This document shows positions 3,262-6,846 of a stretch of DNA of 12,316 bases, one piece after another. The position numbers were made by a program, and so were the translations under genes. Source of the stretch: a virus (Duplodnaviria; Heunggongvirae; Uroviricota; Caudoviricetes); IMG/VR virus record IMGVR_UViG_2563366829_000021, positions 1-12,316 of that record; one strand, given 5' to 3'. Below the pieces are notes generated by a model. It saw only the letters and a program-made list of their open reading frames with translations, ran no database searches and was not told the origin of the DNA. Within the stretch, counting starts at the first letter, position 1. The number at the start of each line of letters is the position of its first letter.

Positions 3262-3322
3262 CTTTACCCTCGCTTATCCACATAACTTATTGATTACATT
3301 GATAACTAAAAAGATCGTCGAT

Positions 3323-3667
3323 TTAGAACTCTTCGATGTTCCAGCCACCACCTGCTTTCTTTGGCTTAACCGTTACCCCGATGATTCGGAACGGATACTG
3401 ATCTGCGGCGACTTTGGTTTTCACCCTGGCGTCGTCGGTCCAGAAACCTTTCACTTCGTGCAGTTCCATCTCGCCGGTGGCGAGCATCACAGCGAAATCT
3501 GGCGTATAAAACGTGTTATCAGCTAACCGCAGCTTGATACCCTCGAACCGATACCAGGCGATTTCCCCTGCACGTTTACGCTGCTCAAGGTGCTGGCAAT
3601 ACGCAGATTCTGTTTTGTTCATCTGGCCTGTTTTGAGTCGACCAAGAGCCTGTATCTGTTTTCTCAT
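3323..3667 (-). CDS. DUF1064-like phage protein, possibly PD-(D/E)XK-fold nuclease
   Basis: 114-aa ORF; motif YTPDF...ELHEVKG...DDARVK is consistent with a D...E-x-K nuclease-like core and my recollection of DUF1064. ATG at 3667 sits directly downstream of a promoter-like element. Confidence 0.55.
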   Translation of the reverse strand: MRKQIQALGRLKTGQMNKTESAYCQHLEQRKRAGEIAWYRFEGIKLRLADNTFYTPDFAVMLATGEMELHEVKGFWTDDARVKTKVAADQYPFRIIGVTVKPKKAGGGWNIEEF

Positions 3668-3669
3668 GA

Positions 3670-3748
3670 TTTACCCCTGAGGTAATTAAAAACCACATAA
3701 GACACTAAATCAATAGATTTTAGAATATTTTATTACCCAGTAGGTAAT
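3670..3748 (-). promoter_or_regulatory. Internal promoter with two operator palindromes: ATTACC-CAGTA-GGTAAT (3732-3748) and TTTACC-CCTGA-GGTAAT (3670-3686) flanking a -35 TTGATT (plus 3708-3713) / 17 bp / -10 TTTAAT (plus 3685-3690), reading toward 3667
   Basis: Read from the minus strand: ATTACCTACTGGGTAAT-(18 nt)-TTGATT-(17 nt)-TTTAAT overlapping ATTACCTCAGGGGTAAA, then ATG. Same geometry as the PL-like promoter at 6768-6846. Confidence 0.5.
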
Positions 3749-3758
3749 CATCGAGACG

Positions 3759-3781
3759 TAAAAAAATGCGCTATCGCGCTG
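3759..3781 (-). terminator. Weak terminator-like element downstream of the P-like gene
   Basis: Short GC palindrome GCGC-GATA-GCGC on the minus-strand RNA followed by seven U. The stem is only 4-5 bp, so low confidence. Confidence 0.3.
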
Positions 3782-3784
3782 GTA

Positions 3785-4567
3785 TTACTTGATAAATCCT
3801 GCCGCCTTTCCCCGCCTGTATTCCTCCATCAGCCACTGCGCCGGTGTTATTCCCCCAAGGGTGGCGGCGTTAGGCATGCACCCGAAACTTCGCCCTGGTG
3901 GATGGTAAACGTCTCTCCCTGTGTCCGGAGGTGTACTCATGGGTTCTGGCTTTGCCTGTATGCTGATCACCGGATCGGGTATCTGCTGTCCGGAAGCCAC
4001 CTTTTTCGCCCAATCATCGAGCAGCCTGCGCGCGTGTTTCTCAACCTCAATCTCGCTAAGCTGGCGCTGATACATTGCACGGCGGGTATCACATACGACC
4101 CAGTACATAACCGGATGTCGCCACGGGAATCTTTCGGGACCACCAGGATATAAACTTTTTTCCTTGCTGTACCGGTGAAACTCCGCCATCACATCGTCAA
4201 TGGTGACGCCAAGAACCATCTTGCTGTCTTTGCACCACTTGATGAATTGCCCAGGCGACGGCCAGAACGGAGATTCACTGGCGCGGGCGTGGCGCATACC
4301 AGCGTTAACCTGTTCCATTGTTGTGATCCCATTCTCCAGAAACGCAAGCATCCATTGTTTTCGAAATTCGTTTAGCTTTCCTTGCTCGCTGATAGCAGCG
4401 ATGCTGCCTGGAAATGCAGCCTGTAACTGGACAAACATTTCGTTGAAAATTCTTGCAACCTGCTCCTTCTTTGCCCTTTCATCGTCAGCAGAAGCAACCG
4501 CCGTCGAGTGGTCATGCCCACCACGAAAGCGATCGTACTCATTAAGAAGTTCTGGAGTTGATTTCAT
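3785..4567 (-). CDS. Replication protein P-like (lambda P family, DnaB helicase loader)
   Basis: WMLAFLENGITTMEQVNAGMRHARASESPFWPSPGQFIKWC aligns almost residue-for-residue with the lambda P segment WVLAFRENGITTMEQVNAGMRVARRQNRPFLPSPGQFVAWC as I recall it. Start chosen at ATG 4567 (MKSTPELLNEYD, compare lambda MKNIAAQMVNFD) with GAGGTG SD upstream; overlaps the 3' end of the O-like gene. Confidence 0.8.
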   Translation of the reverse strand: MKSTPELLNEYDRFRGGHDHSTAVASADDERAKKEQVARIFNEMFVQLQAAFPGSIAAISEQGKLNEFRKQWMLAFLENGITTMEQVNAGMRHARASESPFWPSPGQFIKWCKDSKMVLGVTIDDVMAEFHRYSKEKSLYPGGPERFPWRHPVMYWVVCDTRRAMYQRQLSEIEVEKHARRLLDDWAKKVASGQQIPDPVISIQAKPEPMSTPPDTGRDVYHPPGRSFGCMPNAATLGGITPAQWLMEEYRRGKAAGFIK

Positions 4568-5375
4568 CCCACACCTCATCTATCCAGTCAGTGTTATGCC
4601 AGTCAAGGCTCTTTCTGACTTCACCTGATTTCTGTCTACAGAACTGGATGCGCCTTGCCAGCTTCTGCTCCCACTGTGCCTGATGGTATGCCTTACCCTC
4701 AGCCATCCAGTAAATTCTGAACTCTGCAAGTTCCTGTGCCGTTGGCAGACTGTCCAGGTAGATTCCCTGCAATGAGCTTTTCCGAAGAAAGTCATCTGAT
4801 GGCTGCCATTGTTCATGCATGACAAATTTACCTAATTGCCCTGGCCCACCAGGAGGAACAAAGTTATTCATCACGGCGTTGTTTGCGACGGGGTCATGAG
4901 GCACAGAATCCCCGGTTTTTGTCCTGCTCTCCCTCTCTTGGTTAAATGACTGGTTATATGACTGGTTCTGGATCCCGTTTTTGGGATCATTCAACATCCC
5001 GTTTTTGGGATCATTCAACATCCCGTTTTTGGGTATATTCCCGTTTTCGGTAACATTACCGTTTTCGGGTTCATTGCCCCCCTCCCGGTTGCCTTTAATG
5101 TTCCCGTTTTTGGTTATATTAAGAGAGAAAACCCGCACTCTTTTTGTCGCTCCCTTTCTCTCTCCGGTATCTGAAATAAGCCCCATTTTCATGAGCGATA
5201 TAAGCCCGGCCTGCACGGTTTTTTTATTCAGGCAAGTGTCTTTAACGAGGCGTTCTATGCTGGGGTAGCAGAGGTTATATTCATCGGCTCTGTCAGCCAT
5301 CGAGAGCAGTATGAGCTTTAATGATGAGCTACCTGGATCTGTCTCCCAGGCCCAATCTGTTGCATGTCTGCTCAT
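4542..5375 (-). CDS. Replication initiator, lambda-O-like: N-terminal winged-HTH DNA-binding domain, Asn/Gly-rich repeat linker, C-terminal domain
   Basis: 277-aa ORF directly upstream of the P-like gene. N-terminal LKLILLSMADRADEYNLCYPSIERLVKDTCLNKKTVQAGLISLMKMGLIS looks like a replication-initiator HTH. The central low-complexity linker is encoded by the tandem DNA repeats at 4973-5120. GGAG SD upstream of ATG 5375. Confidence 0.7.
   Translation of the reverse strand: MSRHATDWAWETDPGSSSLKLILLSMADRADEYNLCYPSIERLVKDTCLNKKTVQAGLISLMKMGLISDTGERKGATKRVRVFSLNITKNGNIKGNREGGNEPENGNVTENGNIPKNGMLNDPKNGMLNDPKNGIQNQSYNQSFNQERESRTKTGDSVPHDPVANNAVMNNFVPPGGPGQLGKFVMHEQWQPSDDFLRKSSLQGIYLDSLPTAQELAEFRIYWMAEGKAYHQAQWEQKLARRIQFCRQKSGEVRKSLDWHNTDWIDEVWDEINSRTS
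4973..5120. repeat. Iteron-like tandem repeat array inside the O-like gene (candidate origin of replication)
   Basis: Two exact 24-bp copies TCCCGTTTTTGGGATCATTCAACA (4973-4996, 4997-5020), then degenerate 18-bp units TCCCGTTTTTGGGTATAT, TCCCGTTTTCGGTAACAT, TACCGTTTTCGGGTTCAT and a further TTCCCGTTTTTGGTTATATT at 5101-5120. Each unit has a CCCG-T4/5-GGG dyad core. Confidence 0.6.
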
Positions 5376-5591: not shown

Positions 5592-5700
5592 GGTAAGCCC
5601 TGTTATTAGTATTGGGATTACGGTCATTTTGTGCTGACACAAAAAAAAGATCAACCAGATTTGGTTTTTTGTTACCTTTTAGGTGCGAATAGATATGAAA

Positions 5701-5741: not shown

Positions 5742-5972
5742 TCATGAGTAGAAGAAGTATGCCAGTTCTGCTTTTGAGCGCAGCCATTGTCTTGTTTTAC
5801 AGGCTTTAAAAAGCCCATTCATCAATACCTTACCTGGCATTTTGCGCTTACCTGTTAAGTGAGTCTGGATATAGTGACTCGTCGTTCCGGCTTCCTGTGC
5901 GAAGGCTTCACGCTCATCCGGAGTAAGTGCAAGCCAGTGCTTTTTGAAATCGAAATGTCCGTTATCGCTCAT
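5742..5972 (-). CDS. Cro-like small DNA-binding regulator (76 aa)
   Basis: Divergent from the repressor across an operator-rich intergenic region; sequence LTPDEREAFAQEAGTTSHYIQTHLTGKRKMPGKVL looks like a short HTH protein. Position and orientation match cro. Confidence 0.55.
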   Translation of the reverse strand: MSDNGHFDFKKHWLALTPDEREAFAQEAGTTSHYIQTHLTGKRKMPGKVLMNGLFKACKTRQWLRSKAELAYFFYS

Positions 5973-6126
5973 AGCTATTGCCTGATATTTATTTCAGATA
6001 ATAAATATTCACCCATAAGGTAACAAAAATCAAGGATAGTTACCTATGGGGTGCATTTACCTGTTGGGTAATATTGCTTTAAATTGAATCATCTACTGAT
6101 TCATATATGAGGCGATTTTCCAGAAA
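5973..6126. promoter_or_regulatory. OR-like divergent promoter/operator region between the Cro-like and repressor genes
   Basis: Strong palindrome TTTACC-TGTTG-GGTAAT at 6056-6072; two degenerate mirror-image copies TCACC-CATAA-GGTAAC (6009-6024) and TTACC-TATGG-GGTGC (6040-6054) flanking a -35-like TTGATT (minus, plus coords 6028-6033). Candidate leftward -10 TATTAT (plus 5998-6003). Individual promoter hexamers are tentative. Confidence 0.6.
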
Positions 6127-6711
6127 ATGAAAAGTATCCAGGACGTCCGCAGGCAAAATCTCAACGACTTGATCGACCGTGAATTCAATGGTGTTCAGAC
6201 GCGGATGGCAGAAAAACTTGGAACTCAGGCAAATCTGGTAAACCGCTGGGCTCTTGGCAAGAAGGTTATCGGCGACCAGGTTGCGCGAAAAATTGAAGCT
6301 GCCGCCAATAAACCCCGTAACTGGCTTGATATCGATCGCTCGCTTTCTCAGGAAGGTTTTCAGCCTGTCGGCCCAAGCGACATTGGTCAGCTGGCGGCTC
6401 ACAACCTGGAACGCTGGATGAGCGAAAGCCGCGACCTTTCAACGCAGGGAAAACTTCACCGCGCATCCGGCGTCGCCCAGGTGACAATCAGTCGCCTGTT
6501 AAACAATGAGGTCAGCGTTTCCATTTCCACCCTGGAGAATGTTGCATCCGCATTCGGGCGTCACGGATATGAACTACTGATTCACCCGCACGACCCTGCG
6601 ACTATCAACTATGACCGCTCACGCTACGCATTGTTACCCGAAACCGAGAAAGCAAAGATCGAAAGTTACATTGAATTTGTCATCAACCAGAACGAAAAAA
6701 GCAAACAATAA
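6127..6711 (+). CDS. Prophage repressor (CI-equivalent) with two tandem XRE-type HTH domains and no recognisable S24 peptidase domain
   Basis: 194 aa. HTH-like segment 1 around residues 10-70 (NLNDLIDREFNGVQTRMAEKLGTQANLVNRWALGKKVIGDQVARKIEAAANKPRNWL); HTH-like segment 2 around residues 95-150 (LSTQGKLHRASGVAQVTISRLLNNEVSVSISTLENVASAFG). The C-terminus shows no LexA-type Ala-Gly/Ser/Lys pattern. Followed by a strong terminator. Confidence 0.7.
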   Translation: MKSIQDVRRQNLNDLIDREFNGVQTRMAEKLGTQANLVNRWALGKKVIGDQVARKIEAAANKPRNWLDIDRSLSQEGFQPVGPSDIGQLAAHNLERWMSESRDLSTQGKLHRASGVAQVTISRLLNNEVSVSISTLENVASAFGRHGYELLIHPHDPATINYDRSRYALLPETEKAKIESYIEFVINQNEKSKQ

Positions 6712-6757: not shown

Positions 6758-6767
6758 TGCCAGATAG

Positions 6768-6846
6768 ATTACCTTACGGGTAATTTTTTTAACTCATATC
6801 TATTGACACCAAACCAAATAAGCATAATTATTACCCCAACGGTAAC
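6768..6846 (+). promoter_or_regulatory. PL-like early promoter with two operator palindromes: ATTACC-TTACG-GGTAAT (6768-6784) and ATTACC-CCAAC-GGTAAC (6830-6846); -35 TTGACA (6803-6808), 17-bp spacer, -10 AATTAT (6826-6831)
   Basis: Consensus -35 hexamer; upstream operator centred about 30 bp upstream of the -35; downstream operator overlaps the last 2 nt of the -10 and the predicted start site. Confidence 0.6.

Follow-up and report, generated by a model that had tools for sequence, protein, structure and literature searches.

Multivalent repressors that bind two phased operators placed around a promoter or on its flanks are known from gal (OE/OI), from lac (O1/O3) and from lambda CI (5-6 turns). 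Lambda CI is not known to have operators inside the early right operon. Mycobacteriophage L5 carries about 30 asymmetric "stoperators" for its repressor gp71, which are oriented with transcription and block elongation. Among the described systems closest to the one treated here is the Rep/Ant switch of phage SPC32H, reportedly the subject of Kim and Ryu (2013) and Kim et al. (2016) and represented by PDB entries 5D50 and 5D4Z.

SPC32H Rep is a tetramer that binds palindromic DNA, from which a tetrameric antirepressor releases it (PMC9638917). The repressor's two domain pairs are ~100 angstroms apart, and its C-terminal tetramerisation domain resembles that of Rco, a DNA-looping repressor of Bacillus plasmid pLS20; the later paper that makes this comparison describes the mechanism of repression as not extensively characterised (PMC9986798). 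Rco is a tetramer as well; it has a homologous HTH domain and a tetramerisation domain of the SPC32H Rep type, a partner protein relieves its action, and it draws two operators spaced by 75 bp, at the Pc and Pr promoters, into a short promoter-enclosing DNA loop (PMC9986798). The Rco operators are direct-repeat arrays occupied by several tetramers, whereas the locus described below has two single palindromes.

A site of the kind we describe is already annotated in ε15, a sister phage, whose RefSeq record (NC_004775.2) carries the feature "protein_bind, repressor, lysogeny" at 35906-35922, between gp42 and gp43, and marks further repressor sites at OL and ahead of terS, gp3 and the tail fibre gene. 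Here we analyse a stretch of viral DNA of 12,316 nucleotides (the window) that has the same palindrome at the same position, between a replication gene and a resolvase gene, and as part of a similarly dispersed set. The ε15 record marks only the distal copy in this gap, with no promoter; the second copy (35969, 62 bp away) and the -35 and -10 elements of ε15 were found in the present analysis. The gap element of the window is a further case of a Rep-controlled control element of an ε15-type phage, with its site annotated in a sister phage, and we consider it probable that it forms a third Rep-controlled sigma-70 promoter, built on the plan of the PL-like promoter and placed behind a putative weak terminator.

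Phage type and operator clusters

By sequence comparison, the window is a Uetakevirus prophage of the ε15/phiV10-like, temperate podophage type, with 94-98% identity to Escherichia phages phiV10, ZX5, TL-2011b and their relatives. The stretch around the gap (window positions 3560-3900) is present in 531 of 5,426 complete E. coli genomes (~10%), nearly always as a single, chromosomal copy; UMNK88 (NC_017641.1) is one of the carriers, and strain GN02050 has it at 100% identity, in a prophage that adjoins guaA.

The early right operon lies on the minus strand and runs from a cro-like gene (5742-5972) through a DnaT/O-like gene (4542-5375), a lambda-P-family gene (P-like, 3785-4579) and a DUF1064 gene (3323-3667; Pfam PF06356; PHROG 190 at 6e-43, annotated as Holliday junction resolvase) to Eae- and Ea22-like genes and small genes, a gp49-like regulator (890-1231) and a 77-aa ORF (660-893). 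The gp49-like regulator matches PHROG 536 ("transcriptional regulator"), and searches of Pfam, NCBIfam and PDB returned no matches for it. A strong terminator on the same strand (654-637, -14.5 kcal/mol) precedes the small terminase gene terS (minus strand, ATG at 582). On the plus strand, the repressor gene rep (6127-6711) encodes a protein of 194 aa with two HTH regions, classified as Pfam HTH_3 and free of a peptidase domain, that matches the SPC32H repressor over its full length (PDB 5D50, E = 3.5e-42, residues 1-190); by this homology, the window's Rep would likewise be a multivalent tetramer. Two further features were seen in the operon: a perfect DnaA box (TTATCCACA, plus strand, 3274-3282) in the short gap between the DUF1064 and Eae-like genes, and two tandem, origin-iteron-like copies of TGGGATCATTCAACATCCCGTTTTTGGG at 4982-5025, inside the DnaT/O-like gene, which the terminator scanner had flagged.

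The palindrome TTACC-N5-GGTAA matches the window eight times at no more than one mismatch, against 0.15 matches expected, and none of 200 shuffles held eight such matches. The sites fall into four clusters (starting at 585/603, 3671/3733, 6009/6040/6057 and 6769/6831). Nearest to the packaging genes is a tandem pair (585-599 and 603-617, starts 18 bp apart) that abuts the terS ATG. The motif scan also gave an OR-like cluster between the cro-like gene and rep (6009-6023, 6040-6054 with two mismatches, and 6057-6071), whose three-site layout is found in ε15 too, where the record annotates none of the three. The PL-like (OL) cassette on the plus strand (6769-6845) is made up of an operator (6769-6783), a -35 TTGACA (6803-6808), a -10 AATTAT (6826-6831) and a second operator (6831-6845). 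Finally, both sites in the gap between the P-like and DUF1064 genes, at 3671 and 3733, are exact copies of the motif, identical in palindrome to the sites between rep and the cro-like gene. The copies in the rep/cro and PL-like regions, where the repressor must act, support reading the gap palindromes as operators of the Uetakevirus (ε15/SPC32H-type) Rep, which would be expected to bind them as well. Within the OR-like cluster, the operator centres are spaced 31 and 17 bp apart, unlike the even spacing of lambda, and the cro-proximal operator sits within the spacer of a PR-like promoter (TTGTTA-17-TATTAT).

Genome-wide, the same scan yields 15 sites in ε15 and 14 in phiV10, where ~1.2 are expected; on this sequence evidence, dispersed Rep sites are the rule in the ε15/phiV10 group. 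The first-pass annotation had set the gap operators against lambda, which has no repressor operator at the equivalent position. That statement is true, but lambda is the wrong baseline, since ε15/phiV10-type phages scatter their operators and the ε15 record itself marks a site in the gap. L5 also has many immunity-repressor sites beyond the main switch that keep lytic genes silent in the lysogen. The sites described here differ from those of L5 in being palindromic, in numbering ~14-15 per genome and in lying at operon starts and, in the gap, around a promoter; being palindromic and at operon starts, the gap sites were rejected as L5-type stoperators.

The terS pair overlaps the terS ribosome-binding site directly after the strong terminator, and it is conserved in ZX5, BUCT554, ε15 and phiV10, with one of its copies annotated as a repressor site in ε15. 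With a pair that abuts the start codon behind a strong terminator, the packaging genes appear to be under their own Rep control. The earlier suggestion that they might be driven from the gap promoter finds no support in this arrangement, in which both the terminator (654-637) and the operator pair (617-585) stand before the terS ATG. A possible extended -10 (TGgTACTAT) lies near the pair, at ~625-617.

One further operator-like site lies between the cro terminator and the next gene, where 5657-5690 (plus strand) reads as a degenerate "-10 plus proximal operator" module (AGATTTGGTTTTTTGTTACCTTTTAGGTGC) that points antisense. Its operator has two mismatches in the window and one in phiV10, ZX5 and Tyrion, and the module may be a relic because a -35 was not found there.

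The gap cassette and its PL-like counterpart

From the P-like stop (3785) to the DUF1064 ATG (3667), the gap measures 117 bp, and it contains the elements that the first-pass annotation had placed there: a weak terminator-like element, TTGATT and TTTAAT 17 bp apart on the minus strand, and two perfect operators. Read on the minus strand, it begins with a putative weak intrinsic terminator (3779-3760) consisting of a GCGC-GATA-GCGC stem-loop (3779-3768), one A and a T7 run (3766-3760). The fold has an energy of -8.4 kcal/mol (z = -2.3) and a stem of only 4 GC pairs, and the terminator is unlisted by the terminator scanner, which requires 5 pairs. Neither the stem nor the T7 run varies among 63 unique gap cassettes, and the phiV10 record annotates a putative terminator at this position.

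Next comes the distal operator (TTACCTACTGGGTAA, TTACC-TACTG-GGTAA; 3747-3733 in the minus-strand reading), at about -69 to -55 of the predicted promoter, and adjoining it an A/T block, AAAATAT (3731-3725, about -54 to -48), which has high information content across the 63 cassettes and is possibly an UP-element or a bend; the OL cassette has a T-run at the matching offset. The -35 hexamer TTGATT (3713-3708, four of six consensus matches) lies within a conserved CTATTGA (3716-3710) and is followed by a spacer of 17 bp that includes the box TTATGTGGTTT (3700-3690). The last T of the -10 hexamer TTTAAT (3690-3685) is the first T of the proximal operator (TTACCTCAGGGGTAA, TTACC-TCAGG-GGTAA; 3685-3671 in the minus-strand reading, about -7 to +8). 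Promoter geometry places the predicted transcription start at an A at 3678, 7 nt past the -10. The observation that this operator abuts the ATG of the DUF1064 gene is confirmed, with 3 nt between them; the very short leader that this implied would measure ~11 nt from the predicted start and would begin at the ribosome-binding purines (AGGGG) that the operator includes. Across relatives, the centre of the proximal operator keeps these purines (agaGG), while that of the distal operator varies freely.

The distance between operator starts is exactly 62 bp both in the gap and in the PL-like pair (6769 and 6831), in line with the equal spacing noted in the first reading of the locus. The order in the gap is operator, 19 nt, TTGATT, 17 nt, TTTAAT overlapping the operator, 3 nt and ATG; the order on the plus strand of the PL-like cassette is operator, 19 nt, TTGACA, 17 nt, AATTAT and operator. 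As the offsets of the elements are equal base for base, the two cassettes have identical geometry, sharing CTATTGA at the same offset in their -35 regions, the register of the -10 and a proximal operator that covers the edge of the -10 and the predicted start. They differ in that the PL-like cassette has a consensus -35 (TTGACA), a -10 with an A at -11 and a leader of ~27 nt, whereas the gap cassette has a weaker -35, a -10 that is non-canonical in this clade, an additional TGTGG box and a ribosome-binding site within the operator. The DUF1064 gene (3323-3667, minus strand) would be the first gene of the gated unit.

The palindromes might also work as RNA hairpins in read-through mRNA, with the proximal hairpin hiding the ribosome-binding site of the DUF1064 gene. 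The proximal palindrome does carry the ribosome-binding purines in its loop and 3' arm, and for the distal palindrome a fold energy of -5.6 kcal/mol (z = -2.1) was calculated. We nevertheless hold this explanation to be very improbable, given that shuffled sequences fold as well as the proximal region does (z = 0.12), that the palindrome is found on both strands and in the untranscribed divergent OR regions, and that its arms are invariant and never covary, as protein contacts would predict; an Rfam scan of the whole window gave no matches. Operators for Rep are the reading that we carry forward.

The T.TGG of the spacer box is at least 90% conserved in gap cassettes and is missing from OL cassettes. 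In the form (C)ATATGTGGTTT, which occupies 3690-3700 of the gap spacer (minus strand) and is likewise missing from the PL-like cassette, the box is found at positions 3309, 20922, 24740 and 35117 of phiV10 and at 2989, 24752 and 35954 of ε15. In both phages it recurs ~45-60 nt past a single Rep operator, before the head (gp3/gp6), tail-fibre and lysis operons, and a phage or host factor common to these promoters may bind it. A DnaA box was rejected as an interpretation of the TGTGG box, TGTGGTTTT being three mismatches from the consensus. An IHF site at ATCAATAG was rejected too: the TTR part is missing, and the PL-like copy reads GTCAATAG.

Conservation and turnover among relatives

Both gap operators are present, 62 bp apart, in all eight named phages compared (the window's phage, phiV10, ZX5, Tyrion, BUCT554, Klebsiella ST512-KPC3phi13.3, SPN1S and ε15). 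SPC32H, whose Rep is homologous to that of the window over its full length, carries the gap cassette as well and has it in common with SPN1S. A pattern scan of IMG/VR for perfect half-sites at any spacing between 52 and 75 bp found 122 pairs at 62 bp and 20 at 63 bp, with no other spacing in that range seen more than twice; in 156 of 161 operator pairs, TTGA stood at the -35 offset in one orientation but not in the other. Because the scan had required perfect half-sites, we repeated the comparison on loci retrieved through the Rep protein alone. There were 80 Rep matches in IMG/VR, all at least 99% identical, and 78 of the loci had enough flank; the operator pair is present in 77 of these, with perfect half-sites in 74 and one mismatch in 3. 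A comparison with related prophages was one of the checks proposed in the first-pass annotation, and it finds both operator copies kept.

The 63 unique gap cassettes conserve the GCGC-N4-GCGC-A-T7 terminator, both operators, AAAATAT (about -54 to -48), CTATTGA, the T.TGG spacer box, an xxxAAT block and the distance to the ATG; 61 unique homologous PL-like cassettes served as the OL comparison set. The cassette is also kept where the neighbouring genes are exchanged: several relatives, ε15 and Tyrion among them, have a RuvC-like resolvase downstream in place of DUF1064, and SPN1S and ε15 have a different replication gene upstream. The gap cassette itself is real and strongly conserved, and it is probably functional.

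Architecture can nonetheless turn over. In a prophage of Pseudescherichia vulneris (locus L130, 4343-4375), the gap terminator is kept and the 62-bp bracket is replaced by tandem operators 18 bp apart, in the order TTGCAA, 17 bp holding one operator, AATTAT and a second operator abutting the ATG. This layout suggests that a terminator followed by a Rep-gated restart has been kept at the gap in P. vulneris despite the turnover of its architecture. In one IMG/VR locus (L178, 2513-2545), tandem operators 18 bp apart lie to the left of rep in place of the 62-bp pair. There may be two interchangeable architectures of Rep promoter, the 62-bp bracket and a tandem pair such as that before terS. Identities of Rep are 41-78% among the named phages, 59-61% for two genome-contig matches and at least 99% for the 80 IMG/VR matches, and all Rep homologues examined, down to 41% identity, use TTACC/GGTAA; no relative was found whose Rep recognises another palindrome.

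Predicted promoter activity and proposed mechanism

The pair of hexamers is by itself weak evidence for a promoter: when the AT-rich DNA between the operators is shuffled, 22% of the shuffles hold a 9/12 match somewhere on the strand. In the PL-equivalent register, such a match arises in only 0.6%. A consensus promoter scanner leaves the minus-strand promoter of the gap unlisted because TTTAAT carries T, rather than A, at the second hexamer position. Its sole promoter-like match in the gap is on the plus strand, where AAGACA (3699-3704), 16 bp and TAGAAT (3721-3726) would set a start inside the distal operator, so that the operator would cover it, and, as with lambda oop, would yield an antisense RNA, here to the P-like gene. 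ZX5 even has a perfect TATAAT at this place. The plus-strand promoter is, however, not conserved outside the E. coli clade, its hexamers being missing in Tyrion, BUCT554, the Klebsiella phage and SPN1S, and within the clade its -10 varies (TAGAAT, AAGAAT, TATAAT, TAGAAC). Its register is 6 bp off the PL-like cassette, and the conserved blocks match the minus-strand reading. We judge it improbable, and keep to a promoter that reads toward the DUF1064 gene.

An A at -11 is near-invariant in sigma-70 -10 elements. The window and its E. coli clade have T at this position whether the -10 is read as TTTAAT (17-bp register) or as TTAATT (18-bp register); 36 of 63 relatives have TAAATT or TATATT in the 18-bp register, with A at -11, and the PL-like -10 always keeps this A. 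With the -11 A missing in the window's clade, the gap promoter may be weak, attenuated or factor-dependent. Read-through past the gap terminator is likely because the terminator is weak, and read-through from the cro-side promoter probably contributes to downstream expression. In the searchable literature, start-site or reporter data were found for no member of the group; the ZX5 paper gives four predicted promoters, without positions or operators. What had first been described as a repressor-gated promoter reading toward 3667 therefore stands firmly in its conservation and its paralogy with the PL-like cassette, and it stays a prediction as a promoter, since its start is a predicted one, the -11 A is missing and the leader is ~11 nt.

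The same features could be accommodated by genuine operators around a promoter that does not work, at least in the E. coli clade, the pair acting as a roadblock to cro-side read-through or as an anchor for long-range Rep bridges to OR or OL. In this clade the -10 is without the -11 A in all registers, the upstream terminator (4-bp stem) makes read-through likely, and Rep would by homology be a tetramer with two DNA-binding ends; the terS pair, too, is apparently downstream of any start, judging from the possible extended -10 at ~625-617. A roadblock or an anchor has no need, however, of conserved -35, spacer and -10 blocks, and CTATTGA at the PL-type offset, the 17-bp spacer and xxxAAT are conserved in the 63 cassettes far above the operator centres. 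Relatives have a canonical TAAATT or TATAAA, moreover, and the Pseudescherichia variant has rebuilt a promoter (TTGCAA-17-AATTAT) at the same place. We regard a non-working promoter as unlikely on balance, and prefer a working promoter under Rep control.

Such a promoter would operate as follows. Transcripts from the cro-side promoter would meet the weak terminator past the P-like gene, and a second start at ~3678 (minus strand) would drive the DUF1064 gene and the accessory genes as far as the gp49-like regulator and the terminator at 654-637. In a lysogen, tetrameric Rep would occupy both gap operators. On the proximal operator it would cover the edge of the -10, the start and the ribosome-binding site, and it would exclude RNA polymerase because this operator spans about -7 to +8. 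The distal operator would present the same helical face 62 bp (~5.9 turns) upstream, beside the A/T block. The two operators would probably be bound cooperatively, and possibly by one tetramer that holds the promoter in a small loop. Removal of Rep by an antirepressor would let the gap promoter fire together with the PL-like and PR-like promoters.

The operators flank the promoter at a fixed, helically phased distance, as a short repression loop requires, and the strict 62-bp phasing in both cassettes suggests cooperative occupancy, plausibly by one tetramer; it is from this fixed phasing that we infer looping. The predicted loop, with 47 bp between the sites, would be much shorter than those of gal (~113 bp) and lac (92 bp). 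At ~160 angstroms, these 47 bp would correspond to about a half-circle across a protein of 100 angstroms, the separation of the domain pairs of SPC32H Rep (PMC9986798).

Should the promoter be active, immunity in phages of the ε15/phiV10 type would bear directly on a number of separate transcription units, an account limited to the two switch promoters and read-through would be incomplete, and models of induction timing and leaky expression would change accordingly. Phages of this type are used as O157 reporters and as an engineering chassis. The gap cassette would offer a compact, repressor-switchable promoter module and marks a conserved joint between exchangeable gene modules, and its fixed 62-bp bracket makes a clean, testable system for very short loops formed by a structurally known tetramer. 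We put forward, more tentatively, a joint reading in which each genome has at least five Rep-associated promoters (PR, PL, the gap, terS and the head, tail-fibre and lysis operons) that replace a lambda-style read-through cascade. It would combine 62-bp micro-loops, in which a single antirepressor-sensitive tetramer clamps the promoters and which would be among the shortest phased repression loops proposed, with a hypervariable operator centre.

The variability concerns the distal gap operator together with the 8 nt upstream of it (3733-3755), which form a hypervariable patch in the 77 loci whose Rep proteins are at least 99% identical. The half-sites of the distal operator are invariant in these loci, and its central 5 bp occur as 32 different 5-mers. 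Averaged over pairs of loci, the difference per site is 0.34 in the patch of 14 nt, compared with 0.03 in the 388 nt around it and 0.057 at third codon positions of rep. Such a level in the non-contacted centre, ~10 times the local background, could stem from continuing adjustment of operator strength or from local hypermutation of DNA that is always bound by protein. The distal OL operator (6760-6783) shows weaker hypervariability, and the centres of the OR operators are not variable.
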